DNA of 64,000 nt from an uncultured virus (IMG/VR IMGVR_UViG_3300002498_000029). Its lineage: Duplodnaviria > Heunggongvirae > Uroviricota > Caudoviricetes. Position numbers and translations under genes: made by a program. The stretch lies in IMG/VR virus record IMGVR_UViG_3300002498_000029. One strand, given 5' to 3'. Positions 3 through 61,479 of this stretch are shown here, piece by piece; position 1 is the stretch's first letter, and every line of letters begins with the position of its first letter. Below the pieces are notes generated by a model. That model was not told the DNA's origin. It worked only from the letters and a program-made list of their open reading frames with translations, and made no database searches.

Positions 3-254
3 TTATATGGTATATAGTTATATGAAAATCAATTACAGTTTACAGTAAATAACTTATTATTGTATAGATAGTTGGTTGGTTAGCCATGATTGAAATTATG
101 CTGTATAGTAGATAATTTATCTTATATAGCATGCTGTATTATAAATAGTAAAGAATAGTATTAGTAGATTTTACGTGATTAGTCTATGATATATTCTATA
201 AATTTTTATTCAATAAATTTAAATAATGTTAAACATAAATATGTAATTTAGTAA
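3..254 (+). CDS. 3' part of a recoded hypothetical protein (runs off the window start)
   Basis: Frame 3 is open to TAA at 252-254 when TAG=E and TGA=W (LYGIELYENQ...SKEEYEEILRDES...). Confidence 0.6.
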
Positions 255-265
255 AAGGTTATAAA

Positions 266-1612
266 ATGATAATTTCTCGATTTGCACCTTCACCAACGGG
301 AACATCTGGTATGCATATAGGTAATTTAAGAACAGCATTATATAGCTACTTATATGCAAAGCAAAATAATGGTAAATTTATTCTTAGAATAGAAGATACA
401 GATAAGGAGCGATCAAATGATTTAGCTCTTAATGATATTCATAATATATTAAATATGTTTAACATTATTCCAGATGAAGAGTATATACAGTCTAAAAGAT
501 TATCAATCTATAGATATTATGCTCATAAACTTATTGCGATGGGATATGCATATGCTTGTACTTGTACTGATAATGAAGAATATAAAGATTGTAAATGTCG
601 ATTAAAACCAGATATTGATCCCATTACAAATTGTTGTATTAGATTAAGTATTCCTTGGTATAAGAGTAAACAAAATTTTGAATATGATATTGTATTGGAT
701 ACGGTGTCATGTTATGATCAAATTAGAAAAGATAAAATAAATATAAAGTATGAAGAGTTATATGACATAGTATTACTAAAGTCTGATGGATACCCAACCT
801 ATCATCTTGCATCTGTAGTTGATGATCATTTAATGAATATTACAGATATTTTTCGTGGTGATGAATGGCTCTCATCGTTTCCATATCATATAATATTATA
901 TAATGCATTTAAATGGAATATACCAAAATTTTATCATTTACCGCTTATTACTAATGATTGTGGTGAAAAGCTGTCTAAACGAGATGGAGATTTTTCAGTA
1001 AAGGCATTATTATCAAAAGGAATATTACCTTCAGCTATTTTAAATTATATTGCATTATTAGGGTGGCATCCTTCTGGTAATGATGAAATATTTAATATGG
1101 ATAAACTATTAAAGGACTTTAGTGTTGAAAGATTATCTAAAAGTTCTGCATGTTATGATGAGAAAAAATTAAATAAGTTTAATCTAATACATAGTAGAAC
1201 AGATATTGGTAAAAAAGAGTTTAAATTAATGCTAAATAATAAGGATGATATTTTATTAGAGAGATTGTATATTATATTTAAAGACGGAATAAACATTAAT
1301 GAATTGATTTCAAATATCAATAATAGTTCTAGTGTTATAGATTGGACACCAAGATTAAATGAATTTTTTAAAAGTTTAAGTAACTTGATTTATCGTCTAC
1401 CATATGTTAATCATGCTGCTGAATTAATTACTGATAGTGACATTGATAAGATACTTAGTGAACTTGAGATTGCAGGATATAGTAGGAAAGAGATTAATGA
1501 GTGGATTAGACTTGCACTAACAGGATCGGTGATAGGTTTGCCAGCTAGGACACTATTAGGTATACTTTATACAGTTACATTAACATTTAAAATACGTCAT
1601 TATATTTTATAA
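266..1612 (+). CDS. gltX: Glutamyl-tRNA synthetase (class I), TAG/TGA-free
   Basis: RFAPSPTG..HIGN, LRIEDTD, DGYPTYHLASVVDDH, RGDEW and KLSKR motifs; ends TAA. Confidence 0.93.
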   Translation: MIISRFAPSPTGTSGMHIGNLRTALYSYLYAKQNNGKFILRIEDTDKERSNDLALNDIHNILNMFNIIPDEEYIQSKRLSIYRYYAHKLIAMGYAYACTCTDNEEYKDCKCRLKPDIDPITNCCIRLSIPWYKSKQNFEYDIVLDTVSCYDQIRKDKINIKYEELYDIVLLKSDGYPTYHLASVVDDHLMNITDIFRGDEWLSSFPYHIILYNAFKWNIPKFYHLPLITNDCGEKLSKRDGDFSVKALLSKGILPSAILNYIALLGWHPSGNDEIFNMDKLLKDFSVERLSKSSACYDEKKLNKFNLIHSRTDIGKKEFKLMLNNKDDILLERLYIIFKDGININELISNINNSSSVIDWTPRLNEFFKSLSNLIYRLPYVNHAAELITDSDIDKILSELEIAGYSRKEINEWIRLALTGSVIGLPARTLLGILYTVTLTFKIRHYIL

Positions 1613-1622
1613 AGAGGTTAAA

Positions 1623-1964
1623 ATGGGATAGTACACACAAATAATATAGTTCTTAAAATTACACTTAGATTTAAATAATTAGGACATTAAATGGAATTTA
1701 AGATAGTTATAGCAATTAGATAAACCTAACTTATATGAAGAATAGTTATAGGATAAAATATAGTAGTTATAGGATAAAATATAGTAGTTATAGGATAAAA
1801 TATAGTAGTTATAGGAAGAAAAATAGGGTTTATAGGAATAGAAGGATGAGCTATAGGATAAAATATATGACTTATAGAAATAGGTAAGAATACTAAAGGA
1901 AGAAAAATATAAACTACAGGAACAGCTGATATAGTTAAAAGATTATTTATCTTAGTGTATTTAA
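1623..1964 (+). CDS. Acidic coiled-coil protein (recoded)
   Basis: With TAG=E it reads ...EELEDKIEELEDKIEELEDKIEELEEEKEGLEEEKDELEDKIYDLEKE..., a clean heptad pattern; GAGG RBS upstream; ends TAA. Confidence 0.8.
1743..1805 (+). repeat. 21-bp tandem repeat x3 (tagttataggataaaatatag), in-frame coding heptad ELEDKIE
   Basis: Direct inspection of 1743-1763, 1764-1784 and 1785-1805. Confidence 0.9.
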
Positions 1965-2328: not shown

Positions 2329-2523
2329 ATGAAATTTTACAAAATTGCATAGGTTGTTCAAATAACAAACTTATCACACTATCATCTTAAGAAATGAGCC
2401 AAGGAAGGATTCATATAGGAAACTATATTACCTTCAGGTTGAAGACTTTATTCTTAGGAACAACTTCAAAAAATTATTTAGTTTGCAAGTGGTAATGGTA
2501 AAAACATTAAAAGTTAGACTTAA
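2329..2523 (+). CDS. MerR-type HTH protein resembling the IS607 TnpA N-terminal domain only
   Basis: MKFYKIAEVVQITNLSHYHLKKWAKEGFIEETILPSGWRLYSEEQLQKI (TAG=E, TGA=W). Confidence 0.75.
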
Positions 2524-3784
2524 TTTAACTAAAGAATAGTTAATAGTATTATCTACACTAAGCAATTAGTGTAGATACACTTACAACAAATTAATAGATT
2601 ATATGAATAACTGTAGGTAGAACCATGTAAACATAGACTTTAAATAGTTGAATAATATTTCAAGAGACTTTAGAAATGAAAATAACTTAACCGTAAATTC
2701 AAAATGTATTCAAAATATGACAAGAGATTTAATTGGATCTATCAAAGCTTTTTGAGTTTTAATTAAAAAAGATAAGACACATCATCTACCACATAAATTT
2801 AAATCTTATAAACAATTTCAATCTCTTATTTATGATTGAAATAACGGTAGTGGTGGATTTAAAGTCTTTGATAACAATGTTATACTTAATGTATTTCATT
2901 AGAAAGAGTATAAAAAAACATTAATGTTAAACTGTTATAACTTATTATAGAAATTTAATATTACAAATAAAAATATTAAGATGATAATAATCAAGAGATA
3001 GAATGAATAGTATTTCTTAAATATTATCTATGATTCTGAAAATGTTAACAATAATTTAAATTATAATTAGTTTATATCAATAGATCCTGGGTTTACTAAT
3101 ATTGCAACTATTTTTAGTTCTATTGAAGAATAGTTACCAAGGATAATTAAAAACAAAAAATTTAAAAGACACTGTAAAAGATTAGAAATACTTCAAAGTA
3201 AAAGAGATAAGTGTAAAAGGTTTAGTAAGAGACATAAAAAATTATCATTATCTTTTGCTAAGAAAACTAAGAAACTGACTAACAAGAAAAAAGACTTTCA
3301 CCACAAAGTATCTAGAAAAATAGTCAACTATTGTATTGATAATAAAATAGGTAATATTTATTTCGAAGACACTGGTGTGAGGAAAATAATTACAAAAGAA
3401 AACAAAAAAATCAACGGTAAATCTAAAACTTCCGGAATGGCAAGGTTTAGTGGATTTATGAAGTATAAATCTGAAGAATCTGGAATTAAATTTTATTTAG
3501 TTCCAGCATATAATACATCTCAAATAAACTGTTTGACTGGTAATAAGTTTGACACAAAAGTATAGCTATCAATAAGATAGATTAAGCTTTGTTACAATAT
3601 AGTAATAGATAGAGATGTAAATGCTGCTATAAACATAGCAAAAAGAGTTAGGGGTGAATGGTTCACCCAAAATGGAAATTGACTTCTTAGAAGTTTAAGT
3701 TCTAATGAAATGTATTTAAATAATCATGATAAGTGATTGCTTAAATATGAACAATCATTATTAAAATTTTAGAACGTAGTTTAA
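2495..3784 (+). CDS. tnpB: TnpB RNA-guided endonuclease (recoded)
   Basis: MVKTLKVRLNLTKEE N-terminus; RuvC motifs FISIDPG, IYFED, AYNTSQ, DRDVNAAINI; track ORF 3377-3565 is a fragment of it. Confidence 0.85.
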
Positions 3785-12998: not shown

Positions 12999-13028
12999 TG
13001 TGATAAACCACATCATCATAGATATAAT
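12999..13028 (+). promoter_or_regulatory. Phage promoter TGTGATA-N17-TATAAT
   Basis: Repeated motif, upstream of PARP. Confidence 0.75.
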
Positions 13029-13057
13029 TAAAACATATTAAGATTAAGAGGTTATAT

Positions 13058-14239
13058 ATGCAAACATCAGAAAGATATCTTGTCATGATAACAGAAGCTA
13101 ATAATAATAAATTCTATCATATGAAGCCTAGCGGTTCTCAACTTATTATAGAATATGGTCGTATTGGATCTTCTGTTCGACATGAGACTTATGATATTAG
13201 CAAATTTAATTCTAAATATAATGAAAAGATTAGAAAAGGCTATCAAGATAAAACTGAATTATATATAACTAATACAACTACTTCAACTACAAAACCTATT
13301 AGTGATCTTGCTATTAGAACCTTTATTGACAAGCTTCTTAAGTTTTCAAATGATTCTGTAACAAATAATTATACAGTAAATGCTAAGAATGTTACTCAAG
13401 CTCAAATTGATCAAGCTCAAATGATTATTAATAATATATCAAAGGAATCTAAATATAGCATAGATCCAGTTGAAATAAATAATTTACTTATTGACTTATA
13501 TCATGTATTACCCCGTAAAATGAATAATGTCAATAATTATCTTATTAAATCTAATGATGCTAAAGTATTACAAAATATGCTAGTTAGAGAACAAGATCTT
13601 CTAGATTCATTGGCTTCTAGTATGTCAGTGGCTAATGCTCAACAATCTCAAACTACTCAAGATCAAAACATATTAGACATTCTTGGTATTGAAGTAAATC
13701 ATTGCACTGATGAGCAAATTGAGCAAATTAAAAACCATATGGGACAAACTAAAGATAGATTTTCACAAGCTTATGTAGTAAATCATAAAAAGCAATCTGA
13801 ATTATTTGAATCATTGCAAACTACTAAAAAAGAATTACTTTGGCATGGTACTCGTAATGAAAACGTAATATCAATACTTCAAAAATCATTACAAATTAGG
13901 CCAGCTGGAGCAATTATTACTGGCGCGATGTTTGGTGGAAATGGAATATATTTTGCCGATAAGGCTATTAAATCTACTGGATATACATCTACTAGTGGAT
14001 CATATTGGGCTAGAGGAACTAGTAGTATTGGGTATCTTATGGTATTTGAAGTAGCAGTTGGTAATCAAAAACATATTTATAAACATGATAGCTCATGTTA
14101 TAAATTAAATAAAAAAGACCTTAATGCTGAAGGATTTGATAGCGTATTTGCCCATGGTGGTGTAGATTTAAAGAATAATGAATTTATAATTTATTCAACA
14201 GACCAATGTAAAATTAAATATATTATAGAAATAAAATAA
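13058..14239 (+). CDS. PARP-like ADP-ribosyltransferase (WGR + regulatory + catalytic domains), TAG/TGA-free
   Basis: NNNKFY..EYGRIG WGR domain; LLWHGT, GAMFG.GIYFA, NEFIIY (H-Y-E triad). Confidence 0.88.
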   Translation: MQTSERYLVMITEANNNKFYHMKPSGSQLIIEYGRIGSSVRHETYDISKFNSKYNEKIRKGYQDKTELYITNTTTSTTKPISDLAIRTFIDKLLKFSNDSVTNNYTVNAKNVTQAQIDQAQMIINNISKESKYSIDPVEINNLLIDLYHVLPRKMNNVNNYLIKSNDAKVLQNMLVREQDLLDSLASSMSVANAQQSQTTQDQNILDILGIEVNHCTDEQIEQIKNHMGQTKDRFSQAYVVNHKKQSELFESLQTTKKELLWHGTRNENVISILQKSLQIRPAGAIITGAMFGGNGIYFADKAIKSTGYTSTSGSYWARGTSSIGYLMVFEVAVGNQKHIYKHDSSCYKLNKKDLNAEGFDSVFAHGGVDLKNNEFIIYSTDQCKIKYIIEIK

Positions 14240-14291: not shown

Positions 14292-15290
14292 ATGGAAGAA
14301 TATATCATATGTGAATATTGCAGTAAATATATAAAAAATATTGCTAATTCAAAAACTGGTCATTATAGACGTTGCATAAAATGAAAGTAGCATAGAGACG
14401 ATATAATTAAAGGTATAACATATTAGTATTTATATTAGTAGTATATTATAAATTAGAAGTCTATTACGCAAATATGTGCGTAGTTAACCCTTAAAAAGGC
14501 TGGGGCAATTATATAGTTATTAAATAAATATAATATACATATTAGAACTAGATCATAGGGTAAGCGAACTAAATCATATATTGCACAAACTAAAAAAACC
14601 TGTAATTAGAAATATGGTGCAGATTATCATACATGTAAATAGTCAAATTTACGATAGCATATTGATAACCAAATTAAAGTATTGCACAATGTTAATAATG
14701 TATTTCAATTATCTAATATAAAATAGAAAATTCGTAATACTTGTATGTAGCGATACGGAGTATTAAATGCTAGTCAATGTTAGACTGTTAAAAATACTTT
14801 TAGAAAAACGTGTTTATTAAAATTTGGCGTTGATAACCCATGAAAATGTAAATAGGTAATAGATAAGTGTTTAAATACTAAATTCTTAAAACCCAAATCA
14901 TACAATTCAACTTCTAAGGCGGCAGTCGAGTTGTTTAATAAATTATTAATATATAATGATAATTAGCATATATATTGCCAAAATAAAGGAAAATAGTTTG
15001 GTGTAATGTCATAGTATAAAAAATATTATTTTTATGACTATGTTGATACAATTACTAAAAAATGTATATAGTTTAATGGTAATTATTACCATGCAAATCC
15101 AAAGTACTATGAGTCTGGTGATATTAATAAAAAATTAAATTGTACTGCACAAGATATTTGAAAACGAGATGCACTTAAATTGTCTGCAATAAAGGATAGA
15201 GGATATTAGATATTAGTAATTTGATAGGATGAATATACCTGTAATAAAGAACTTATAATTGAAAATTGTATTAAGTTTTTACAGAGCTAA
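14292..15290 (+). CDS. Free-standing homing-type endonuclease (repeated KTC.EKYGV motifs plus Vsr/DUF559-like nuclease; recoded)
   Basis: KKTCNEKYG, NTCMERYGV, KTCLLKFGVDNP repeats; KCIEFNGNYYHANP; GYEILVIWEDEY, where WE is TGA TAG. Confidence 0.8.
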
Positions 15291-15570
15291 TAAAGCTATT
15301 AAAGCTTTAGGTTATACATCAACTAGAGGATCATTTTGGGCCCGTGGAAATAATGAAGTTGGATATCTATTTGTATTTGAAGTTGCGGTAGGAAATCAAA
15401 AACATATTTATAAGCATGATTCATCTTGTTATAAATTAAGTGAAACTAGTATAAAGACTGAAGGATTTGATAGTGTTTATGCTCATGGTGGAGCAGATTT
15501 AAGAAATGATGAATTTATAATTTATGACACAAAAAAGTGCAGAATTAAATACATAATAGAGGTAAAATAA
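15286..15570 (+). pseudogene. Orphaned duplicate of the PARP 3' end (285 nt)
   Basis: ANKAIKALGYTS...VGNQKHIYKHDSSCYKL...AHGGADLRNDEFIIY aligns colinearly with 13955-14239; no proper start. Confidence 0.8.
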
Positions 15571-15928: not shown

Positions 15929-16540
15929 ATGATGACAGCTAGCGACCTAAGAATTATAAATGCAAATTATTACAAAGGACCCTCCTTCAAACGAAAGTAT
16001 TAGTTTAATACAGATTTAGTTTGTGGCAATATTTGTTATTGGTAGAAAAAAGGCATAATTATATTTTATTTTATAACTAAACCAATATTATAGAAGATAA
16101 TAAATAATAAACAAATTAAATTAAATAATGGTATAAAGATAAATAAATTATATTATGATTTATTTGTATAGTTAACTTAGATAATAAATAGACATATAAA
16201 TGTTAAATAGTATTATTAGTATGTATTTTGTGGGCATTCTATCGGTGGGACTATAGCATCTATTGCATTATATTATGCAATAAATATGACGTATGGCTGT
16301 GACTATAATTATAATTTAATAACATATGGTAGTTTACCTGTAGGAAATAAACAATACTGTAAATATATGAGAAATAATTGTGATGTTTATGAATATTTGA
16401 ATTATAATGATAAAATAAAGGTACCCATAGGGTATAGTAATATTGGAAATAAAATATTACTTGATAGTGGTGGGCATAATTGGATAGATTATTTTAATAA
16501 TTTAAACCAGCATAAAGGAAATTTAATTATAAATGAATAA
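15929..16540 (+). CDS. Lipase class 3-like alpha/beta hydrolase (recoded)
   Basis: FCGHSIGG nucleophile elbow; TYGSLPVGN; GGAGGAG RBS. Confidence 0.7.
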
Positions 16541-19294: not shown

Positions 19295-19771
19295 ATGAAA
19301 TATCAAGATAAGTTATTTATAGATATAGCTAATAGACTTAAATAGCAATCTAATTGTATATCAGTTAAAGTCGGTTGTGTAATTGTTAAAGATAGTAGAA
19401 TTATATCAATGGGATATAACGGTACTCCGGCTAAATATATAAATTGTAGTTAGTACTGAGGTTTAGATTATTTAAATCAATCTAAATAGTATACTATAAA
19501 CAGATAGAAGCACCATAAATGATCTGATATACATGAAATCCATGCAGAAATGAATGCAATATTGTTTGCAGCTAAATAGGGTATATCAATAAATAATAGT
19601 GTATTATATACTACTGTATTTCCTTGTCAGCATTGTTTAAAAAATATTATTCAAGCTGGAATAAAATAGATAGTATATTAGCAATAGTATGATTTAGGAA
19701 TAACAGATTTATCTTTTATGGAATATATTAAAAGAAATATATTAATAAGACAATATATTTAGGAGAAGTAA
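19295..19771 (+). CDS. dCMP deaminase (recoded)
   Basis: VGCVIV..RIISMGYNG, HAEMNA, PCQHC. Confidence 0.9.
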
Positions 19772-22623: not shown

Positions 22624-22632
22624 GGATTAATA

Positions 22633-24042
22633 GTGATAAAAAATAAAATAATTAAAATCATCAAAGATACAATAATTGGTACATCATTCAAAAATAACGT
22701 GTTTATCGCCGGTGGTTTTGTACGTGATTATATAATGAATAGACCGTCTAAGGATATTGATATTGTTGTATCTAATAATGGGATAAATGGTGGTATTGAT
22801 CTTGCATATCTTTTACATAAAAAATTTAATACATCTACACCAGTAGTTTTTAAACGATTTGGTACAGCTCAATTAGTATTAAATGGACAAGAAATAGAAT
22901 TTGTAGCTACTAGAAAGGAGTCTTATAATTTTGAAGATAGAAATCCTGAAGTATCTTTTGGCACCATAGAAGATGATGTTAAACGTCGTGATTTTACTAT
23001 AAACGCCTTATTATATGATATATCTAATGAAAAAATAATTGACCTTATCGGTGGAATATTTGATATTAAGAATAAAATAATCAGAACTACCTCAAACCCT
23101 AAAGTAATATTTGCCGAAGATCCGCTTCGTATTTTTAGAGCTATTAGATTTTCAGCTCAACTGGGATTTGCAATTGATACTAAGACTATGTTAGCTATTA
23201 AAGAATATGTACCTTGGCTTAAAAACATTTCAAATGAACGTATTCGTGATGAACTTAATAAAATTCTTATATCTGATCACGCTATTGATGGATTGTGGTA
23301 TATGAAAACTACTGGTATTCTTGAATATCTTATTCCTGAATTTAAAGAATTATATAAAATAAAAAATCAAGGAAAATATCATACTAAAGATTTATGGAGA
23401 CATACCTTAGAGGTTATTAATAATTCTACTCCAACAGTTGAACATCGTTTGGCGGGATTGCTACATGATATTGGTAAAATAAAGACTATGACAGTCGATG
23501 GAAATAATGTTCATTTCTATAAACATCAGTTTGTATCTCAACGAATTGCACATAGATTTCTTACTAAATATAAATATACTAATACTCAAGTAGAATGGAT
23601 AACTAATTCAATTATGATGCATATGAATTTCGTGGACAAAATACTCGAAAAAACCATACGTAAAATGGTAAATAAGTATGGTAAGGAACAATTTTTGTTT
23701 TTTACTGACCTTGGCCTAGCAGATTCTAAAAGAGCTGAAAGACGTAAAATAGTTGAAGATATTATATACTTTGTAAAAAATGATGACTTTGTACAAGAAG
23801 TTCAAATTAAATTACCTATAGATGGTAATATGATTATGAGTAGATATGGATTAAAGCCATCTAAGCGAGTTGGTGAGTTATTAACTATAGAAAAAGAATA
23901 TCTGTTTGAATTTCCAGAAGCTACTGAAGATGAATTGTATCATAAACTTGATATTGAAATGGTAGACAGTAATGGTAATTTAACTATATATCAGTATATT
24001 AAACCAGAAAAGCCAGCAGAATTTATATCAATTGACTTTTAA
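22633..24042 (+). CDS. cca: CCA tRNA nucleotidyltransferase with HD domain, TAG/TGA-free
   Basis: GGFVRD, KDIDI, RRDFTINA, EDPLRIFRAIRF, ERIRDE, LLHDIGK. Confidence 0.92.
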   Translation: MIKNKIIKIIKDTIIGTSFKNNVFIAGGFVRDYIMNRPSKDIDIVVSNNGINGGIDLAYLLHKKFNTSTPVVFKRFGTAQLVLNGQEIEFVATRKESYNFEDRNPEVSFGTIEDDVKRRDFTINALLYDISNEKIIDLIGGIFDIKNKIIRTTSNPKVIFAEDPLRIFRAIRFSAQLGFAIDTKTMLAIKEYVPWLKNISNERIRDELNKILISDHAIDGLWYMKTTGILEYLIPEFKELYKIKNQGKYHTKDLWRHTLEVINNSTPTVEHRLAGLLHDIGKIKTMTVDGNNVHFYKHQFVSQRIAHRFLTKYKYTNTQVEWITNSIMMHMNFVDKILEKTIRKMVNKYGKEQFLFFTDLGLADSKRAERRKIVEDIIYFVKNDDFVQEVQIKLPIDGNMIMSRYGLKPSKRVGELLTIEKEYLFEFPEATEDELYHKLDIEMVDSNGNLTIYQYIKPEKPAEFISIDF

Positions 24043-25013: not shown

Positions 25014-25038
25014 TAAAATAAAATAATAAGGAATAATT

Positions 25039-27111
25039 GTGTAGTTAACTAGAGTATTTAGTAGTGTAAATAGAGGTAAATATCATATTCATTTATTTGG
25101 TTATGAAAATGATAAATATGTAACTAAAATATAGTTATTTAATAATTATTTTTATTATCCAAAGATTGATATATAGTAGCTTACCCCATTTAGTTAGTAT
25201 ATTAGTATATAGTAGAATAAATAGTATATATCTATGTATGGTAAAAAAATGGTAAAAATTACTTATTTTAATGATATAGTTAAACAAAATATTGTTAAAA
25301 TAGACGAAATGTTTAAAAAGGCTTATTCATTAGATATAAAACCATAGGTTAAATATATATTAGATAATAACTTATAGTGGTCAGCTAAACGAAATGTAAT
25401 GTTTTTTGATATATAGACTTGAGTTAATCCTGATTTTCAAATGGCAAACAAACCATAGTATGCCTAGATGCCAATTACTTCAATACAAACATATGATAAT
25501 GTAAATAATTAGTATTGTGTTATAGTTTGGCACTAGTCATTTAAAAAAACTATAAAAGATAAAAAATTAGGTGTTGACATAATTACATAGGATAATGTTA
25601 ATTATATTTATTGTTTAAATTAGAATTTAGTAATAAATACATTTTTTACTTTATTAAAAACAAAGCAAATAGATTGTATAAGTGGTTGGTATAGTGGTCA
25701 ATATGACTTACCATATATACTTAATAGATGTAAAAAATTAGATATTAATCCAAATAGTATGACTATTGGTAATTGAGCTTATACAGTACAAAAATAGAAT
25801 GTATGGTCTGTTCATATGAAAGGATTAGATCATATAGATATGATGGATGCTGCAGATGATTTAGATATTAAGAGATCTGATAATAAATTAAGCAGTGTTG
25901 CCTAGTCACAATTACATGATTAGGGTATATTAAAATTAAAGACATCAAGTTGGAAAGACTGGAAAGATGATTTAGATTCATTTATGAAATATGGACTTAG
26001 AGATGTCCAAATATTAAAATAGCTTGACACTAAATTACATATTATTCTTACTTATTGTAATTTTCAACAAGTAAGTAATATAATATCATTATCACAAGTT
26101 TTCGCCAAAACTAATATCGCGTAGGGTATTACATTAAAAATGTTTTGAAATTAGTTTGTTTTTCCAAATAATGTATAGCATACTAGTTAGAAATATGCAG
26201 GCGCGGTGGTATTTGATCCTATTCCTGGATTGCATAAAAACGCAGCTTTATTAGATTTCAAATCTTTATATCCTACTACTATATCCACTTATAACCTATC
26301 ACTATAGACATATGTAATAAGTAAACGATAGGCAGATTAGCGTGGTATTGATATAGATAAAGATATATTACAAAAATTTAAAGCTTCAAATATTCCATAT
26401 ATAGACACTGGCTATTCATAGTAGTTAGTTGGTAAAAGATATATTTATCTATCGCAAAATGCAAAATAGGGTATTTTTGCAAAAATATAGAAAAAATTAT
26501 TAGCCATGCGTATGGAAGTTAGAAAACAAATGATAGGTTTAAATAAAGCTGATATATAGTGTATTTCATTGCATAATAAACAAAATGCAATAAAAGTCAT
26601 TATGAATTCTATTTATGGTGCTTTCGCAAATCAATACTATAGATTTTTTAAAATATAGATTGCAGACTCTATTACATTTTTTGCTAGATTAGCTATTACT
26701 ACAATGTTTAAATATTTTGAAGGTAAATATAATATTAAAGGAATATATGGTGATTCAGATTCAGTTAGTTTTGATTCAACAATATTACTTAAAAATAAAC
26801 AATATATAACAATATAGTAGTTATTTAATAATAGTATTAACATATTTAATCATAAAGACCGGTAGTTTAGAGCTTCTAATTAGCAATTGCCATATTATGA
26901 TTAGTTATCTAATAAAATACAGTATGGTAAAATTAAATATATTTAGAGACATAAAGTAAATAAACAAATGTATTAGATTATATTATAGAATAATAATAAA
27001 GTAATTGTCACTGAAGATCATAGTATTATGATTTAGCACAATAATAAATTAGTTAAAAAACAGCCTAGCTTATTAAAACCTGGCGACAGTTGTATATCAA
27101 TTTTAAAATAA
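25039..27111 (+). CDS. Family B DNA polymerase, N-terminal part fused to the N-half of a split intein (recoded)
   Basis: ExoI FFDIET (E=TAG), ExoII YDLPYI, motif A DFKSLYP, motif B KVIMNSIYG, motif C YGDSD, then intein. Confidence 0.92.
26761..27108 (+). other. Split intein N-fragment (116 aa, Ser1)
   Basis: Block A SVSFDSTI directly after YGDSD; RHKV; block B VIVTEDHSIMI; ends LKPGDSCISILK then TAA. Confidence 0.88.
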
Positions 27112-33760: not shown

Positions 33761-34798
33761 ATGAAAATTTAGAAATCTAAAATACTTTCAGTAAATAAAG
33801 TTTAGAATAATAATTAGTATGTTTATGATATTGAAATGCAAGATACTCCAAATACGTTTTTTGCTAATAATATACTAGTTCATAATTCTATATTTATTGG
33901 ATTAAATAATATGTCAGATTAGTTTTTATAGACTGAAGTAAAATAGTTTGATAAATGGTATTTATAGAATATAGTTAAAAAATATAATCCTAATATAAAT
34001 GAAGACTATTATATCATGTAGTTATAGCATTAGAAAACATTTACTCACTTATATTTTGGTGAAGGTAAAAAAAGATATTATGGTATTCAAAAAAATGGTG
34101 AAAAATATATTAGAGGATTAAATATTATAAGAAAAGATTGTCCATTATTTATGAGAAGTAAATTAGACTAGTTAGCATAGTTATCAGTAAAATAGTAGTT
34201 AATGCTTCATCATCTATAGGACACTATGCAATTATTACTATAGGCTGATTACAGTCAAATTGGAGTATTTAAAAGATTTACAAAAGATTTTGATGATTAT
34301 ATTAAAAAGGATCAACATGTTACTGCAGCTAAATATGCCAATTAGATATATGGTACTAGGATAAATAGAGATGATGTTCCATTATTATTTAATATAATAA
34401 CTTTAAATTAGAATTAGCTAAAAGTAAAAGATAGGCATAGAGCTATTTGTTTATTATAGACTGATTTACATATTATAGATTAGAATAAAGATAAATTTAT
34501 TATCGATTATAAAACATATTTTGATAAACAATGCATTACTCCATTAATGTAGTTTGGATTTATTGAAAGCTGTAAATGGATAATCTAGGAATATAAAAAA
34601 TTACATAGAGATTTTTATCCATTTAGACCAAGTATGTTATGTCCAGTATGCTAGAAAAAACACGCTAAATTAACCCCAGCTAAATCTTGTGTTAGTAAAT
34701 TTATAGCTAAAATTAAGAAAAGTAAATAGTAGACAACAGTGTAGCAAAAAGAAATAATTTCAAAAATATCAGAATATTTAAAACATTTCGAGGAATAA
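33761..34798 (+). CDS. Split intein C-fragment (42 aa) fused to the C-terminal part of the family B DNA polymerase (recoded)
   Basis: YVYDIEM..FFANNILVHN, then SIFI (completing YGDSD/SIF); KKRYYG, RGLNIIRKD. Confidence 0.92.
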
Positions 34799-35739
34799 TG
34801 GTAGAATTTAGTTATAGTCAAATAAGCACTTGAAAGCAATGTCCACATAAGTTTTTTCATCATTATATAAATAAAAATAAAATAGATACTAGTAATATTC
34901 ATACATTATTTGGTACTGCTATTCATGAAACATTACAGTAGTATTTAAAATTATTATATAATAATAGTATAAAATAGGCAGATAGTTGAAATATTAATCA
35001 GTTTTTCAAGGAAAGATTATTATTTAATTATAAAGAAAAAATATTAAAATTAAATAAATAGCCCATAATGAAATAGATTTTGCATAGTTATTTTAATACA
35101 GGATTAGAAATACTTGAATATTTTAAAAAACATAGATTAAAGTATTTTAGATCAACACAATGTGAATTATTAGGTATAGAATTATAGTTAAAATATTAGA
35201 TAAAGTCTGCAGTTTTTTTTAAGGGATTTATAGATATTGTGATAAAAGATACTAAGATAGGTATAATAAAAATAATAGATTTTAAAACTAGTCAACGCGG
35301 ATGGAATGCTAATGATAAAAAAGATTAGTTAAAAAAATCTCAACTATTATTATATAAATTAATTTATAGTAAACAATTTAATATTGATATTAATTCAATA
35401 TAGGTATAGTTTATTATATTAAAAAAGCAAGTAATGAAGTATTAGGATTTTAACATTCCAAGAATTCAAACCTTTATTCCAAGCAATAAGGGCCCAAGTA
35501 TTAAAAAAGCAGAAGTATTATTATAGTAGTTTTTAACTAATTGTATAACAAAATAGGGATAGTATAATAATAATGAATAGTTATATAAACCAACATCAGA
35601 TGCATCAAACTGTAAATGGTGTCCATATTATCATTTAAATGCAACATAGTAGACAGCAATGGTTTGTACAAAATGGGATAAAAAATACAAAAGGAAGGTT
35701 ATAAATGATCAACATTCAATAGCTGAAGTAGTAGTTTAA
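34798..35739 (+). CDS. PD-(D/E)XK exonuclease, RecB/Cas4-like (recoded)
   Basis: SYSQISTWKQCPHK, GTAIHE, GFIDIV, IIDFKTS, QLLLY, CKWCPY. Confidence 0.82.
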
Positions 35740-36763
35740 GCAATTATAGTAGATTGTAACTAATAAATATATGGTTAGAAATCCAAAATAGTTTTCTAAA
35801 AATATTAAAAGATATAATAAACTATTAAATATTATTAATTTATACAATAAAATATCAGAAATAGATATTCAAATAACTACTATAGTAGAAAATGAATCAA
35901 CATCAGATATCGTAGAATAGTATATAGAATTATTAAATCAAGATAAATAGGTATTAGTAGAATAGTTTAATGATTTAACGTTTGAAACAGATCCATTAGA
36001 TGATTTAGAATAGATAATAGTATAGATTAGAGCTGGTACCGGTGGGGATGAAGGTGCAATATTTGCATATGACCTATTTAGAATGTATGATTTATTTGCA
36101 AAAAAGAATAATTGGACTATGATTATTGGTGATAGAAATTAGTCAGTAACACAAAATTGTCAAATAGCAATAAAAAGAATAATATTTAACTTAATTGGAC
36201 AAAATGTATATAAAAAAATGAAATACTAGTCGGGCATTCATAGAGTTATTAGAAATCCAATTACAGATGCTAGTGATAGAACACATACCTCTTCAGCAAC
36301 TGTTGCAATATTACCAGTAATATCAGAGGTATAGTTTTAGTTAGATATGAATGACTTAAGAATTGATTATTACAGAGGTAGTGGTAAGGGGGGTCAACAT
36401 AGAAATACAACTGATTCTGCTTGTAGAATTGTCCATATACCTACAAATACTATGGTTACCTGTGAAGACGAAAGAGCTCAACCTCAAAATAAATAGAGAG
36501 CTTTAAAAGAGTTAAGAACTAGATTATATAATCAATTATTAATGTAGCAATAGAAAAGTATAAGTAGTACAAGAAAATAGTTAGTTGGTAGGGGTGATTG
36601 GTCTAGTAGAATAAGAACTTATAATTTTAAGAAGCAACAATTCTTTGATCATAGAATAAATTATATGACAACACGGTTATAGTAGCTTATGAATGGTAAT
36701 ATGGAATAGTTAATAGATAATTTAGAAATCGCATATAAAAATACATATAAAGGACTAGACTAA
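35705..36763 (+). CDS. prfA: Class I peptide chain release factor, RF1-type (recoded, about 22 in-frame TAG)
   Basis: [58 protein letters not shown]. Confidence 0.92.
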
Positions 36764-37885: not shown

Positions 37886-38078
37886 CACATGAATAGCAAG
37901 ACCGCAAAATTAATTAATCGTTTTAGTAAAATTGGACTAGTTGATGACTCTAGATAGATTGCAACAACAAATAATCCAAAAAAAGTTATTAAACAAAAGT
38001 ATAAAAATATAATTTATCCATAGAGACATAATTATAAACAATATATGATGATTTAGATAATTAAGTTTAGGAGTAATA

Positions 38079-39623
38079 ATGTAGAATAAGGTTTAGATAA
38101 AATTTAAAACTGGAGATATGTTAAATGGATATGAAGTATTAGATAAATAGAATAGGCCAACTATATTACTATTATCAGATGATCTAAGACATTTTTCTGG
38201 TATAGCTACAATTAGTAGGTAGTTTGTTATAAATACCTGCCATAGATTTAATTGAATACAATTAGCAGCTGGAATAAATCACCCTGATAAAGGTAAATTA
38301 TTCTTATTAGACCAATCAATTCAATAGCAAACAGGTGTATAGAATGCGTCAGTAAAGTTAATCCCATGAGATGGATACGGCAATGCAGATATTATTAGAC
38401 AAATATTAAGAAATTAGAAAGTTGATGCTATAATGCACTATACTGATCCAAGATATTGAGATTGATTATATGCTATGTAGAATTAGATAAGACAAACTGT
38501 TCCAATTCTTTATCTTAATGTATGAGATAATTTACCCTATCCACAATGAAATATGCCATTTTATCAAAGTTGTGATTTAATTATGAATATCAGTAAACAA
38601 ACTAATTTAATAGTTAAACAAGTATTGGGGCCTGATAATGTGATAGATATAGATAAATGTAAAAGATAGAATATAGATATAAATACAGTACAAAATAAAG
38701 ATAAGACTTACATAACTTATGTTCCACATGGAATTGACAAAAATGTTTTTAAACCAGTTGACAAACAAGATAAAGCATTTATATAGTTTAAACAAAAAGT
38801 ACTAAAGAATAAATAGTACAAGTATATTGTATTTTATAACAATAGAAATATAAGAAGAAAATGTACAACAAATCTTATGGCAGCATTTAAATTCTTTGTA
38901 GATCAATTACCAGAAAGTTAGAAGAAAAAGGTATTATTGTATTTGCATACTACACCCTCTGATATGCATGGAACAAATTTAATATAGTGCCATAAAAGAA
39001 TATTACCGTAGTGTTAGGTTATAATATAGGGTAGTCCATATTCTCCATAGCAACTAAATTATCTATATAATATGGCTAGTGTAACGGTCGGAGTCAGTTC
39101 TGCATAGGGATTTGGATTAGCAACAGCAGAATCATTAATGGTTGGTGTACCAATAATTGCTACTGTTACAGGTGGATTACAAGACCAAATGGCATTACGA
39201 GATAATAAATAGCTATATATAAATTCAATACAACAACCGTCAAAACAAGATGGATTAATAGAATAGTATGGTAAATGAGTATATCCAATTGTTCCAGAGT
39301 TAAGTATTTAGGGATCACCTCCTACACCATATATTTATGATGCAAGAGCAACTATAAAAGATATTACATAGGGAATATTATATTGGTATAATCTTGGATA
39401 GGAAAAGAGAAATTAGTATGGTAAATTAGGAAGATAGTGAATGGTAAGTGAATAGAGTATGTTATCTTCTAATATTATGAACAATAGAATAATTTATAGT
39501 ATTTAGTTAGTACTTAACAAATTTATACCACAAGATAAATTTACATTAACAAGTACTAGACGTAAAAGATATGTTCCATAGAATAAAGGAATATTTAATC
39601 CAGTAACTAAAAAATGAATGTAA
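38079..39623 (+). CDS. GT4-like (GT-B) glycosyltransferase (recoded)
   Basis: LLSDDLRHFSGIAT, VPHGID, NRNIRRK, SSAEGFGLATAES, TGGLQDQ. Confidence 0.85.
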
Positions 39624-44137: not shown

Positions 44138-45983
44138 AAATTTAAAATAATAAGAGGAAAAACAAATGAAAGCAATCGAAATAGATAATTACCTATTAGA
44201 CAATGTAAGTTAGCCATTTACAAGTACGGAAATAATAGATATAGATAAAATAACTAGAATGGGTATACAAAAAAATAAAGTTGGAACTTTTTTCGGATGT
44301 ATTGAAACTCAAGATAATTCGTATGTTTGTGGTGAAGTAGACTTTTTATATATATGGAAAAACAAAAATAAGCATAAGAATAAATATTAAACATAAATAG
44401 TAAATATAAAATAATAAGTATTTGATATGTCAAAATCTAGACGCAAACATTTGATAAGACGAATTTCAAGTAAATTTTATAAAAAATAGGCTAATAAATA
44501 TATAAGAAGAATAAAAATAGATTAGTGTATTTTAAATAAAAGATTTTATCAAAAACTATATAATAGTTATAGGATAACAGATCAAGTTTGCGTATGAAGT
44601 GAAGATTGAGCTTCAAATAATATTAACGAAGATATTAGAGATAAAAATTATCGATGAATAAGGAATAAATAAGCATGTATGAAAAATGCCCCATTTGTGG
44701 AAGTTATATTGAGCACATTTAGAATAGTTATCCTATTAAATCAATATATAAATGTCCAAATATGAAGTGTAAATTATTTACTATTGAATTTGATTATTAC
44801 TAGTTACTTAATCCAATATTTACAATAGACCTTAGCTTGGCTTATGCAATTCTTATATTGTAGTATAGAGAATAGAAAACCCCATGGTCAATGAGCATGC
44901 TAAGGAACAAATTTAAGTTATTAAAGTATAGACATAAAAATATACTTAGAAAAGAATAGTTAGAGGAATAAATAATGGCTTATATATCCTATAAACCTAA
45001 AGGTTAGATTAAAAATGCAAAAATAACATCTGTTAAGTTAGGTAATACTGATCATGATATAATGACACTACAATTATTTTTAGATTATGGTGGTAGTGGA
45101 CAAGCATTTGGTGGTTATGCATTAGATGAATGGGATGAAAGTAAAGGTTGTAGAGTTGGCACTAGTTATGGACTCCAATTTATTAAAGAAGTATTGGCCG
45201 CTGTAGGGTAGTATGATTTATTTAAACTACCTGGAAAATATATAAGAGTAGACGCAAATGATACTAAGGTTTTTGCTGTTTGCAATATACTTAAAGATAC
45301 TTGATTTGATCCAGATAAGTTAGCAAGAGATTATTTATTAGAACGGGAAAAGTAATAATGAAAATATATACAGTATACAATTTTAATTTCGAAAAATACA
45401 ACTATCGTCATGATAATGTTAGAAGTTTTGGTGATGCAGATAAGGCTATAAAATTTTGTAATTAGAAAAACAGAGAAGATGCCGACTATAGATATCAAGT
45501 TTAGATAGAATAGCTGTAGGAGTAATAATGAATACTAAATATGATTTTTTGTTTTATATGGCATGTATTATTATAATTGGTAGTGGAATAATGTTATTAT
45601 TTACTTCTTGTGATAATAGAGATCCAAATATAACTCTATCATTATCAACAAACGTGTAGCATGTATATAATGGTGATAATACAATAATAACTATTACTGC
45701 TAAATATACTAGTGATAATTTATTTAATCAACGATTATATTTTAAAACAGATAACGGGTATATTAAAGTTAATAATTCAGATACTTGGGCATAGCAGGAT
45801 AGTATAATATATATAAATACAAATATAAGTGGTGAATGTTTATTGCAATTTAAACATCCAAATACTAATGGATATACAAATATATACTGTTGGACTTACG
45901 TATATGATGACCTAATTTTAGTTGAAGAAATAAATACTAAACTACAAATACCAGTGTTATAGAGATAATAGGAGATATATACA

Positions 45984-46310
45984 ATGAAAAAGATTATAAT
46001 GCTCATAGTAATAATTTTACTATTAATAATAGGTTGTTCAAATACAACAAAAGTTAATGATAATTATTCATTTTATCCAAATCCATGTTAGGATGTATTA
46101 ACTATAAATATTTATCCAGATATACCATTAAGTTATAATGTAAAAGTACATAGTATTAATGGATAGATTGTTCTTAATCAAACTTTTATTAATACAATAG
46201 CAACTAGTACTTTAATTATTGATGTAAGTAATTTTAGTTCTGGAATATATATTATGAATTTATTATATGATAATACTTAGATTAAGTTTAAATTTACTGT
46301 AAGTAGGTAA
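45984..46310 (+). CDS. Lipoprotein consisting almost solely of a T9SS (Por) type-A C-terminal sorting domain
   Basis: Signal peptide with IIGC lipobox; FYPNP..VLTI..VKVHSINGEIV..IIDVSNFSSGIYIM. Confidence 0.7.
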
Positions 46311-52634: not shown

Positions 52635-53993
52635 TTAAAGTATAAAAGACTAGGTAAAACTATATAATTTTACCATACTTCTTTTATTCTTTAATCTAAA
52701 AACTTTAAATAAGTCACACTCACTTAAAGAAACTCTATATTTCACTTTAGAATTTTTTAGGTAGTTATGAAGATCTCTTCAAATGCTTTTAACAGTATCT
52801 TCATTTAGAACTTCATCCTATTTAGTAATCTTAGAATCTAAATATTTCTTCCATTGATCTCTAAATTCTTTTTTAACTATTAAATTTGGATAAAATTTCT
52901 TTTCTTTTTTAATATAGCAATTATATCCACGTCTTGCTATTTCTATAGCAGAGTTGCATGGATCAAATAAATTATACTTTACATTTCCTATGGTTGAACT
53001 GTAAGCACCATTAATGAAGGCTAATTTAATTCCATAAGAATTACATCGTTTTTGAATGTTGTTAGTAAATTTGTTTCTTTTTCAAAGGTTTTGACATAAT
53101 CTATTTAAGCCTTTGTATTTAAATTTAAGTGACTTAGTAAAATCTAGGGACTCCATAAATATATTAGAAACTTTGTATTTTAAACATGTGTTAACAATAT
53201 CTTTAGTTATTTCAATAGTTTCATGATTAAATTTATTATTTAAATACTTGTTAGTTTTGGATGAAGACTATTCTTTAGTCTATTTTACTTTAGTTATAAT
53301 TTCACCAATATCATAAGTTTTAGAATATATTACTTTACTACCTTTGATTATTGAATACCCAATAAATTGGGGATTCAAATCAATTCCCATATAAATATTT
53401 TTATTTAGCTTTATAGGTTGTTTTTCATACTAAAATGTAATATAAATAAAGTTATTATCAATAGCTATTTGAAAAGCAAGAGATTTATCTTTCGATTGTT
53501 GCTATAAATAAAGTAATTGCTTTTTAATATTTTTATGCAGTTTAGGTAATTGTAATTTAATTTTTCTTTTTAAATACGGTTTAAAGATTATATTACTATT
53601 GTCAATGTCTAAGTTAAACTTTCTATTACCATGGTGTGGAGCCTAACCAACTACATATAATGGCTAAATTCTTTTCTATCTATACTATTCTTTTGTAATT
53701 TTACCTTGTAGTCTTTTGAGATAATTATACTTACCACTAAAGATAACTTTTTTATCTGGATTAGATTTATATAAATACTGAGCTTTTTTAATACCAGATT
53801 GTATAAACCAGCTATCTAAATTATTTATATTATTTAAATTTTTAACTAACAACCTTATCTATTTCTAAGATAATTTATCTTTAAATCTATTATAAGAAAA
53901 CCTAATTACATTAGATTGTTGTTTTCTTAACAACAATATATAATCTATATCTTCTTTGTTATTAATAATATAAGGTAGTTTTATAGTATTCAA
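52635..53993 (-). CDS. tnpB: TnpB-related RuvC endonuclease, second and divergent family (recoded)
   Basis: MNTIKLPY..VIRFSYNR, VGEAPHHGNRKF, MGIDLNP, IFMESL, NGAYSSTIGN, DPCNSAIEIARRG. Confidence 0.78.
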
Positions 53994-53995
53994 AA

Positions 53996-54199
53996 TTATT
54001 TAGTTAATGTCCAATGTTTAATGTTTTTATTATTGTCACCTATAAACTAAAATATTTTTTGAATTTGCTACTAAGAATAGATTCTGTATCCAGACGGTAA
54101 TCGACTCTACAAAATAAGTCCCTAATCAGCTCATTTTTTAAGATGATAATAAGATAGATTAGTTAATTGCATGACCTAAGAAATTTTGTAATATTTCAT
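53996..54199 (-). CDS. MerR-type HTH protein, paralog of 2329-2523
   Basis: MKYYKISEVMQLTNLSYYHLKKWADEGLILESRLPSGYRIYSEEQIQKI. Confidence 0.78.
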
Positions 54200-54621
54200 A
54201 ATGATTTATTCCTTTTAATATGTTTTATAATAATATATATGGAGTAAAAATGAAAAAGCAAAAATATTTTCAAGTACTGGTAATAAATTTAGTAAGTAGT
54301 GATATAATATAAATAGTTAAAGAAGATTATATTGTTTTTAATTATAATATATTAAATGAAGATAATATATAAATTTATTTAAAAGAAAGAAAAAAGGTTA
54401 TATAAATAAGGAAACTGGATTCTACTACACAATAGTAGAGAATACTCCATAGAATGCATTATAGTATAAATGGAATAACATAGGATTATTAGATTGAATA
54501 ATATAGCCAAATAAAAGAAAATAGGCTGCATAGAGGTTATAGAAACAGTCAATCGCTATGACATAGTGGTGTATAAAAAATAGTATATATAAAAAAACAA
54601 AAATAACAGGAGGAAATTAAG

Positions 54622-59381: not shown

Positions 59382-60383
59382 ATGAATATATTAATAACAG
59401 GAGTAGCAGGATTAATAGGATCTAGATTTGCTAGTTGGGTAGTTGAAAACACTGATAATGTTGTTATTGGAATAGATGATTTAAGTGGTGGATATGTAGA
59501 GAATGTTAATTAGAAGATAATATTTTATAATTTAGAAATATATAAAGATAATATAGAAGGAATATTTAAGAAACATTCAATTGATATAATATATCATTTT
59601 GCAGCTTATGCAGCTTAGTGTCTGTCTCCATTTATACGAACATTTAATTATAGTAACAATCTATTAACTACAACAAAAATGGTTAATTTAGCAATAAATT
59701 ATAATATAAAGAAATTTGTTTTTACTTCAAGTATGGGTGTTTATGGTTTCGGGAACAATAAACCACCGTTTTCTGAAGATATAATACCTGAGCCAATTGA
59801 TCCATATGGTATTGCTAAATATGCCTGTTAGATGGATTTGAAGGTAGCAAATATACAGCATGGATTGAAGTATTGCATAATTAGACCACATAATGTATAT
59901 GGTGTAAATCAAAACATATGGGATAAATATAGAAATGTTTTAGGTATATGAATGTATCAATCTTTAAACAATTTACCATTAACTGTTTTTGGTGAAGGAT
60001 TACAGAGAAGGGCATTTAGTTATATTGATGATATATTAGAATGTTTATGAATAGCGGGTCAAGATAACAGTACAAATGGTGAAATAATAAATTTAGGTGG
60101 TATTGAATCTATATCTATTATGGAAGCCTGTTAGATAGTAAGTTAGATAACAAACAATAAAAACATAAAACATTTATAGCCAAGACATGAAGTCAGAGAA
60201 GCATATCCAACTTGAAAAAAATCTGTTGAATATTTGGGGTTCAAACATAAAACAGATATCGCTGATGGTATATTGCAAATGTGAAATTGGGCTAAAACTC
60301 AACCAAACAGAGAAAGATTTTAGTGGGATAATTTTTAGATAAGCAACAAAATATATTCATATTGAAAAAACAAATATGTATAA
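59382..60383 (+). CDS. NAD-dependent sugar epimerase/dehydratase (recoded)
   Basis: ITGVAGLIGS, DDLSGG, HFAAYAAE, TSSMGVYG, YGIAKYACE, RPHNVYG. Confidence 0.88.
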
Positions 60384-61479
60384 ATATGATTTTTTAATTA
60401 TTGGTGCTGGGTTATTTGGCTCGATTTGCGCATATGAATTGAATAAATTGGGTCTTAAATGCTTGGTTATTGATAAAAGAAAGCATATTGGTGGTAACTG
60501 TTATACAGAAAATTGAAATTCTATAAATATTCATTTATATGGACCGCATATATTTCATACTTCTAATAAACGTATTTGATAGTATGTTAAAAAGCTGAGT
60601 TAGTTTAATAATTTTATTTACACTCCATTAGCAAATAATAATAATGTATTATATCCATTACCATTTAATATGTATACATTTAACAAAATGTGAAATGTAA
60701 ATACACCAAATGAAGCTAGAACTAAAATGCATATTTCAGACAATATAAAGTATAATAATTTAGAATAGAAAGCAATAAGTCAAGTAGGGTAGGAAATATA
60801 TAATTTATTGATAAAGGAGTATACTCAAAAACAATGAATGAAAGATCCTATATAGTTACCTGCATAGATTATTGATAGATTACCAGTTAGATTTACTTAT
60901 AATAACAATTATTATAATGATATATTTCAAGGTATCCCAAAATATGGATATACAGCAATATTTAATAAGTTGTTGTAGAATGTTGATGTTAAACTACAAG
61001 TTGATTATTTGAATAATAGAGAATATTTTAACATGAAAGCAAAAAGTGTAATATATACTGGTCCAATTGATGCTTATTATGATTATTGTTATGGAGATTT
61101 ATAGTATAGGTCATTGTATTTTAAACATGAAAAATTAGATATAGATAATTATCAAGGGACTTCTGTGATTAATTATATAAATATTGATATACCACATACA
61201 AGAATAATAGAACATAAGCATTTTGATATAAACAATAAAACAAACAGTACTTGAATAACTTATGAATATCCTATTAACTATACAAAAGAAATTGGATAGT
61301 ACTATCCAATAAATAGTGATAATAACAATAATACATATAATAAGTATTATTTATTATCACAAAAAGAAAACAACACTTATTTTGGAGGTAGATTGGCAGA
61401 GTATAAATATTATGATATGGATAAAACAATATTATCAGCTTTAAATTTTTTATAGAGTTATTTTAGGAGTAAAAAATAA
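60376..61479 (+). CDS. glf: UDP-galactopyranose mutase, second copy (recoded)
   Basis: IIGAGLFG, IGGNCY, HLYGPHIFHT, YTQKQW, LEYRS, RIIEHKHF, GRLAEYKYYDMD. Confidence 0.9.

Follow-up and report, generated by a model that had tools for sequence, protein, structure and literature searches.

Here, we analyzed a glutamyl-tRNA synthetase (GluRS) gene and the genetic code of its surroundings in a 64,000-nucleotide stretch of DNA (the window) from the uncultured Caudoviricetes virus record IMGVR_UViG_3300002498_000029. The GluRS is encoded on a 256,585-bp contig. Comparison with homologous sequences gave good support for a code in which UAG is read as Glu and UGA as Trp; because TAG and TGA are both read as sense, UAA is the sole stop codon in this code. 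The GluRS belongs to a distinct clade with a strongly diverged anticodon-binding domain, and it is probably the enzyme that charges the UAG-reading tRNA. The features of the gene, and the frames that flank it, are as follows.

3 to 254, plus strand: upstream TAG-rich frame, with 8 TAG and 1 TGA in 83 codons
266 to 1612, plus strand: GluRS gene of 448 codons, with an ATG start, a TAA stop, no TAG, and no TGA
314 to 325, plus strand: HIGN, the class I HIGH signature, residues 17 to 20; H17 and G19 are invariant in the 67-sequence alignment described below
557 to 598, plus strand: CxC...CxC four-cysteine motif, residues 98 to 111; C98, C100, and C111 are nearly invariant
968 to 982, plus strand: KLSKR, a KMSKS-type loop, residues 235 to 239; K235, S237, K238, and R239 are invariant
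1253 to 1306, plus strand: helix-loop-helix LLERLYIIFKDGININEL, residues 330 to 347 of anticodon-binding domain 4, containing Gly341
1505 to 1546, plus strand: C-terminal motif IRLALTGSVIGLPA, in which R415 corresponds to R435 of Thermus thermophilus GluRS by alignment with the PLRAALTG motif of the latter
1584 to 1964, plus strand: downstream TAG-rich coiled-coil open reading frame (ORF), with 24 TAG in 126 codons

The initial annotation of this DNA had described a complete, code-neutral GluRS gene between TAG-rich genes, and this description held. At 5.6%, the mean TAG frequency of the TAG-rich (late) genes, the probability of finding 448 TAG-free codons is about 6e-12. Residues 2 to 303 of the protein matched the class I Glu/Gln catalytic domain PF00749 in Pfam with an E value of 1.8e-76. 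The protein also scored above the cut-off of the NCBIfam equivalog TIGR00464 (gltX_bact; 348.3 bits versus 289.95, aligned over residues 2 to 369) and below the cut-offs of the archaeal GluRS and GlnRS models. GluQRS (YadB), a protein of about 300 amino acids without an anticodon-binding domain, was rejected as an identity: all of its models scored below the cut-off (for example, 188 versus 256), and the window protein has a C-terminal domain of 140 amino acids. The Pfam model of the anticodon-binding domain, PF19269, gave no match in the GluRS at an E value of 0.01 or below, and a sequence search of solved structures produced matches limited to residues 1 to 311 up to 1 to 338. A structural model was then obtained with AlphaFold2 from the 67-sequence alignment, with a predicted local distance difference test (pLDDT) score of 92.9 and a predicted template modeling (pTM) score of 0.90. 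Its best structural match was T. thermophilus GluRS (1j09; Z of 36.9, root mean square deviation of 4.3, 426 residues), and the two aligned end to end, 1 to 448 with 1 to 468. The nondiscriminating GluRS (ND-GluRS) of Thermosynechococcus elongatus (2cfo) gave a Z of 34.8. Because the model aligns over its full length with T. thermophilus GluRS, the window enzyme is, as modeled, a complete bacterial-type GluRS, whose C-terminal domain has kept its fold and lost most of its sequence similarity. The catalytic columns are invariant across the 67-sequence alignment, the window GluRS included, and R415 in the PLRxALTG-type motif is invariant in 67 of 67 rows. The corresponding R435 region of T. thermophilus GluRS presumably contacts the first anticodon bases. 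The four-cysteine motif is a putative zinc site, and the enzyme is predicted to glutamylate tRNA. As for its composition, GAG accounts for 9 of the 23 Glu codons of the gene, other window genes typically having 0 to 3 GAG per gene, and its GC content is 27.2%, versus 25.3% for the window.

The code of the window was examined by ORF cover, defined as the share of bases lying in stop-to-stop ORFs of at least 100 amino acids, by the columns of homologous proteins in which TAG and TGA fall, and by codon usage. With the standard code, the ORF cover was 0.23; reading TAG as sense raised it to 0.73, and allowing TAA alone to stop raised it to 0.92. All genes are on the plus strand. In Glf (UDP-galactopyranose mutase, 60376 to 61476), TAG fell in columns with Glu in 116, 104, 119, and 82 of 120 homologs; the remaining TAG columns were variable (K/N/D/E/S), and one was a Pro column beside an indel. 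The TGA columns of the same gene had Trp in 120, 116, 120, and 112 of 120 homologs, with a fifth, variable site. In the release factor (RF) gene at 35705 to 36763, the TAG columns had Glu in 113, 113, 96, 74, and 70 of 113 cellular homologs. Among the TAG columns conserved to at least 85%, Glf had three E and one P (the column beside the indel), and RF had three of three E. MetK and RF aligned to solved structures likewise had TAG at conserved Glu positions, and no Gln-conserved column was found among the conserved TAG columns examined. In 53 ORFs with 150 or more codons, the TAG frequency was inversely correlated with that of Glu (Spearman coefficient of -0.60, p of 1.6e-6) and uncorrelated with that of Gln (-0.01), and the TGA frequency was inversely correlated with that of Trp (-0.41). 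Trp and TGA together made up 1.3% of the TAG-rich genes, close to the 1.4% of Trp in TAG-poor genes. The assignment of TAG to Glu made in the initial annotation was thus strongly supported by the Glf, RF, and MetK alignments and by the trade-off with Glu, independently of the identity of the enzyme. The recoding of TGA as Trp, as well as an RF1 variant apparently adapted to sense UAG (see below), had been overlooked there.

The two recoded codons were distributed unevenly among the genes. TGA occurs inside TAG-rich genes and is spread along them, for example in 38061 to 39623 (9 TGA) and 60376 to 61476 (5 TGA), and TAG accounts for up to 19% of the codons in one window gene. The TAG-free genes are also without TGA; about 15 window genes contain neither codon, among them the genes for GluRS, an NAD-dependent ligase, a PARP-like protein, and a CCA-adding enzyme homolog. 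In public protein predictions for this phage and its relatives, TAG is read as Gln. In P0391, the database copy of the window RF, all 17 aligned TAG sites are given as Q, and the public calls P0241, P0393, and P0394 from phage relatives have Q at invariant Glu sites. Since the cellular homologs are 100% Glu at those positions, these Q residues are translation-table artifacts of pipelines that apparently use code 15.

The RF of the window is itself encoded by a recoded gene.

35705 to 36763, plus strand: RF1-type release factor gene, with 22 in-frame TAG; Ile182 stands at the position of Gln181 of T. thermophilus RF1

The protein scored 232 bits against RF1 versus about 155 against RF2, and it retains GGQ and the P-x-T tripeptide (as P-I-T). 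According to the accessible part of a study of algal release factors, Gln181 is critical for reading the third-position G of the stop codon and is mutated in the mtRF1a of algae that use UAG as a sense codon (PMC6821328). In the window RF, this position is Ile182 (codon ATT, 36248 to 36250). The same column in 120 homologs had Q in 114 and I in 6, and Ile was present in the database copy of the window gene, in the four relatives closest to it, and in a single protein encoded on a 467-kb contig. Because RF1 does not read UGA and Gln181 is changed to Ile, the window RF would be expected, from this one residue, to terminate at UAA only, in agreement with the code deduced above. With 22 TAG in its gene, it could be produced only once suppression works.

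Arg358 of T. thermophilus GluRS is the residue that binds C36, as the initial annotation had stated (PMC12088422, in the part of the article available), and the R358Q change turns this discriminating enzyme into a nondiscriminating one (PMC2978374, likewise available in part). We mapped this position transitively, by a HMMER alignment of the ordinary GluRS P0036 to T. thermophilus GluRS and then by a MAFFT alignment (A3) of 67 sequences comprising 23 clade members and 44 ordinary GluRSs. In the HMMER alignment, the counterpart of R358 in LMRPRFDTLKEF is the Arg of LEQSRLKKLSEI in P0036. In A3, the Arg358 column of the window GluRS is occupied by Gly341 (codon GGA, 1286 to 1288), the placement that had been made by eye in the initial annotation. 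This column had 20 G, 2 L, and 1 S in the 23 clade members versus 35 R, 3 S, 3 Y, 2 G, and 1 H in the 44 ordinary GluRSs, and three columns farther downstream, one residue is deleted in 22 of the 23 clade members. In the AlphaFold2 model, residue 341 is held in a loop (339 to 343) between the helices 328 to 338 and 344 to 353. Neither A3 nor the profile alignment discussed below has an Arg, or a Lys, at the Arg358 site of the window GluRS; as aligned, the Arg358-type arginine is absent, being either replaced by Gly or deleted. Discriminating GluRSs are recognized by Arg at the T. thermophilus Arg358 position and ND-GluRSs by a residue other than Arg, and the window enzyme has a non-Arg residue there; in terms of sequence, it is not a discriminating GluRS. 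According to the initial annotation, a nondiscriminating cyanobacterial GluRS has Gly at this site and accepts a purine at 36; in T. elongatus GluRS, the residue would be Gly366. In a general family scan, no amidotransferase family was found among the 87 ORFs scanned in the window.

A protein database search with the window GluRS gave about 30 proteins, with full-length identities of 42 to 58%, on contigs of up to 262 kb. According to precomputed annotation, none of these clade proteins has a PF19269 match. The 23 clade rows were monophyletic on a long branch relative to the 44 ordinary GluRSs, with a Shimodaira-Hasegawa-like approximate likelihood ratio test (SH-aLRT) value of 100 in a quick IQ-TREE search only. 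Judged from sequence identities, the clade's anticodon-binding domain shows much greater divergence than its catalytic domain. The C-terminal identity was 0.14 between the clade and ordinary GluRSs, 0.24 between ordinary pairs of comparable catalytic identity, and 29% within the clade, and because of this order the data point to remodeling followed by constraint, not to decay, of the C-terminal domain.

Three clade members could be viewed in their DNA context, namely the window GluRS and those of two metagenome contigs, L072 (64 kb in all, 20.2 kb of which was covered) and L073 (2.5 kb covered); the latter two are the only clade members in recoded DNA among the metagenome-contig matches listed. 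When TAG was taken as sense, the ORF cover rose from 0.47 to 0.85 in L072 and from 0.43 to 0.70 in L073, so that the gain was 0.27 to 0.50 for the window, L072, and L073. At 70 IMG/VR loci with an ordinary GluRS, the gain was at most about 0.13, and none of these loci was recoded. The clade GluRS therefore occurs in a TAG-recoded context in 3 of 3 cases among the matches listed, and it co-occurs with UAG read as Glu in both contigs that could be tested (the window and L072). L072 is of phage origin: it encodes a T4-type baseplate protein, an RNA ligase, and a 1214-amino-acid tape-measure-like ORF containing 32 TAG. The TAG columns of its ThyX had Glu in 96, 84, and 58 of 103 homologs (from the best 150, proteins of up to 260 amino acids were kept, which excluded 47); the one TAG column conserved to at least 85% was E, and a further column was 82% E. 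Comparison of this ThyX with solved structures alone was uninformative on the meaning of TAG. In-frame TGA is not used in the long genes of L072. An HD-domain homolog lies directly downstream of the clade GluRS in L072 (11042 to 11665) and L073 (1512 to 2171), and there is none at that place in the window.

Relatives were then sought in other collections. A search of viral contigs with the single window GluRS found no relatives, and one with the clade alignment found 71 loci, all of them ordinary GluRSs whose catalytic domains were no more than 43% identical. Among GenBank phages, tblastn detected no clade member for the GluRS and none for the RF, and a degenerate RF-motif pattern gave 0 matches in viral contigs. 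A search of genome contigs with a clade-derived alignment returned cellular GluRSs only, about 36% identical. These were mostly from Bacteroidota, with a few from the candidate phyla radiation (CPR) and others, and mostly had Lys, and in a few cases Arg, at the Arg358 column. The phage lineage is therefore missing from IMG/VR and from GenBank phages as searched. The recoding would show that public pipelines mistranslate these phage genomes, placing Q at invariant Glu sites, and it would explain the absence of the lineage from viral catalogs.

We propose that the window is part of a phage genome of about 256 kb, the late genes of which would be written in a code with UAG as Glu, UGA as Trp, and UAA as the stop. 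Early genes, without TAG or TGA, would be translated by the host unaided. Among them would be the clade-specific GluRS, with an intact catalytic core, a remodeled anticodon-binding domain, and the C36-reading Arg lost, and this enzyme would attach Glu to a phage-encoded CUA tRNA. The CUA anticodon would have C34 and U35 as in tRNA-Glu(CUC) but A36 instead of C36, and the host GluRS should charge such a tRNA poorly. Charging of the CUA tRNA with Glu would bootstrap the decoding of UAG as Glu. Later, termination would be confined to UAA by the RF1 variant, whose gene contains UAG and which has Ile at the Gln181 position. The tRNA specificity of the window GluRS, its acceptance of A36, and the presence in the phage of a CUA tRNA with this identity are predictions of this explanation, which, with the GluRS as the charger, we judge somewhat likelier to be right than wrong. 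A broader reading, to which we give slightly less than an even chance, is that of a jumbo-phage lineage with a self-contained kit for rewriting two stops, made up of an A36-retargeted GluRS, a UGA-to-Trp suppressor, and a UAA-only RF1. If this broader reading is true, the phage would carry a natural amber-suppressor aminoacyl-tRNA synthetase (aaRS)/tRNA pair orthogonal to the host, and its code, with UAG as Glu, UGA as Trp, and UAA as the sole stop, would be one undescribed for a virus or a prokaryote.

Several observations weigh against the GluRS being a charger retargeted to A36, and they concern the tRNA, the gene set, and Gly341 itself. The initial annotation had called for a CUA tRNA elsewhere on the contig, and the search for it failed in the region covered: ARAGORN found no tRNA of any kind in the 64-kb window, its relaxed and intron modes gave spurious intragenic matches only, and Rfam gave no tRNA there either at the gathering threshold or at an E value of 1 or below. 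These scans covered 64 kb of the 256,585-bp contig and 20 kb of the 64-kb contig of L072. The 20 kb of L072 contained a transfer-messenger RNA (16059 to 16415, tag GETHKQAA) and a tRNA-Lys(UUU) (19375 to 19448) and no CUA tRNA. In the literature consulted, we found no GluRS reported to accept A36. The host-readable genes would be early ones by their codon content alone. Moreover, aaRS genes unlinked to recoding are present in many huge phages, and the 70 viral-contig loci with an ordinary GluRS belong to large phage contigs without recoding.

Some of the points that concern Gly341 lend themselves to an alternative in which the GluRS does charge the UAG-reading tRNA, Gly341 is incidental, and recognition takes place via other remodeled parts or the tRNA body, the missing Arg reflecting descent from an ND-type GluRS. 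When the clade profile was aligned with Helicobacter pylori GluRS1 (6b1p), the Arg of ...LKErSQTLKEL became an insertion, with a gap at the Arg; since this alignment and that of MAFFT disagree on the missing residue, the equivalence of Gly341 and Arg358 is uncertain by about one residue. Only the absence of the Arg thus stands in both alignments, and the exact placement of Gly341 stands in one. A residue other than Arg occupies the column in 9 of the 44 ordinary GluRSs, 2 of which have Gly, and in 19 of 63 aligned GluRSs from the non-recoded viral contigs (8 Gly and 11 Lys; 7 of the 70 loci were gapped at this column), so that Gly is not diagnostic. Bacteroidota GluRSs, in which the LLGWHPSGN motif is shared, have Lys there. 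In H. pylori GluRS1, discrimination did not become relaxed when the corresponding Arg was mutated (PMC3927822), and the divergence of the clade spans the whole C-terminal domain, beyond one residue. On the other hand, Gly in 20 of 23 clade members together with the clade-wide neighboring deletion suggests a constraint on the loop. We regard an incidental Gly341 as unlikely, although it is the strongest of the alternatives. The "opened pocket" of the initial annotation is in part sustained, in that the Arg is absent; as a mechanism, it is one candidate, plausible but unproven, given the Gly of ordinary GluRSs and the H. pylori result.

A second alternative, to which we assign a still lower probability, is that the window GluRS serves a jumbo phage as an ordinary auxiliary synthetase, raising the supply of Glu-tRNA(Glu), that the host GluRS or another enzyme charges the suppressor, and that the lack of TAG and TGA merely marks an early gene. 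The existence of the 70 non-recoded loci is in keeping with it, as is that of about 15 window genes without both codons, and the accessible part of a study of recoded phages proposes host synthetases for most of them (10.1101/2021.08.26.457843). However, the clade is distinct from the GluRSs of those phages, its members were found in TAG-recoded contexts as described above, with UAG as Glu wherever this could be tested, and its divergence is concentrated in the anticodon-binding domain, all of which argues against this alternative. Finally, an ND-GluRS making Glu-tRNA(CUA) for transamidation, with TAG as Gln as in code 15 phages, is rejected as highly improbable: it would agree with the Q of the public calls and with the sole amber reassignment reported for phages in the available text of the same study (10.1101/2021.08.26.457843), but those calls are artifactual, TAG lies in invariant Glu columns and never in Gln-dominated ones, and TAG usage trades off with Glu, not Gln.

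Other genes of the window were annotated as well, one of which is related to translation.

22624 to 24042, plus strand: CCA-adding enzyme homolog, with Pfam PolyA_pol head, RNA-binding, and HD domains, 0 TAG, and 0 TGA

This homolog is the second translation-related gene in the host-readable set and could possibly be a helper for phage tRNAs. A short way downstream of the GluRS gene, a TnpB/OrfB_IS605-type gene with a Cas12f1-like TNB domain (2366 to 3784) is written in the phage code, since it contains 13 TAG and 4 TGA. A family B DNA polymerase is apparently split between 25030 to 27111 and 33761 to 34798, which are 6.6 kb apart. The first gene has an intein N-terminal splicing region (Pfam Intein_splicing) at its end; the second, which has no Pfam or PHROGs match, seems by eye to start with an intein C-terminal-like end, after which comes polymerase-like sequence. 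The two genes may represent a split intein. A protein with WGR and PARP catalytic domains is encoded without recoded codons at 13028 to 14239, and a 103-amino-acid ORF at 15259 to 15570 repeats its C-terminal PARP part. A small protein at 45969 to 46310 has a type IX secretion C-terminal sorting domain (Por_Secre_tail), by which a Bacteroidota host is hinted at. About 1.7 kb, from 52650 to 54360, is without a convincing ORF under the codes tried and had no Rfam or tRNA match. A promoter/terminator scan of the window gave no excess over shuffled sequences. The sequencing runs listed with matching sequence were 5 DNA and 0 RNA runs.

To read TAG as Glu, a phage must have some route for glutamylating an amber suppressor, and a dedicated GluRS with a remodeled anticodon domain would be the first such solution. 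The GluRS/tRNA(CUA) pair, if true, would be a natural starting point for genetic-code engineering. In full-text searches of the literature, supplements excluded, neither a phage with TAG as Glu nor a phage GluRS linked to a suppressor was found. Several known systems can be compared with the one proposed here. The nuclear code of Blastocrithidia (NCBI table 31) has UAG as Glu, UGA as Trp, and UAA as Glu or stop, with an altered release factor; it is a eukaryotic nuclear code served by eRF1 and cytosolic synthetases, with no virus-borne kit. The code 15 phages (crAss-like and Lak) share with the window the amber recoding of late genes in phages of standard-code hosts; unlike in those phages, TAG is Glu rather than Gln in the window, reaches the high share of codons given above, and is accompanied by TGA as sense. 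The RF resembles mtRF1a of Scenedesmaceae, an RF1-type factor without Gln181 where UAG is sense (as described in the accessible text of PMC6821328). Scenedesmaceae mtRF1a is organellar, whereas the window RF is phage encoded and has the same Ile as its four closest relatives and one further homolog. The GluRS itself resembles ND-GluRSs and the R358Q form of T. thermophilus GluRS, being a bacterial-type GluRS without the C36-reading Arg. Known ND-GluRSs, however, accept the G36 present in tRNA-Gln and act together with an amidotransferase, whereas TAG is decoded as Glu here, and unlike them, the clade has an extra neighboring deletion and an anticodon domain too diverged for PF19269.

The closest comparison is with the TGA-recoded Jade phages. 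According to the study that described them, these phages encode a suppressor tRNA, TrpRS, and RF1, written in standard code, upstream of lysis genes that contain TGA; synthetases for suppressors are seldom encoded by phages; and, among phages with a code unlike that of the host, only TAG to Gln and TGA to Trp have been observed (10.1101/2021.08.26.457843). As in the Jade module, the window has a phage aaRS in host-readable code, which is the proposed suppressor charger for recoded late genes, together with a release factor. Unlike in the Jade module, the synthetase is a GluRS, TAG is changed to Glu, two stops are recoded at once, the RF gene has 22 TAG and a changed codon-reading residue, and no tRNA lies beside the window synthetase. 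The window enzyme is thus a member of the bacterial GluRSs, and the system to which it belongs is a variant of the phage code-change kit.

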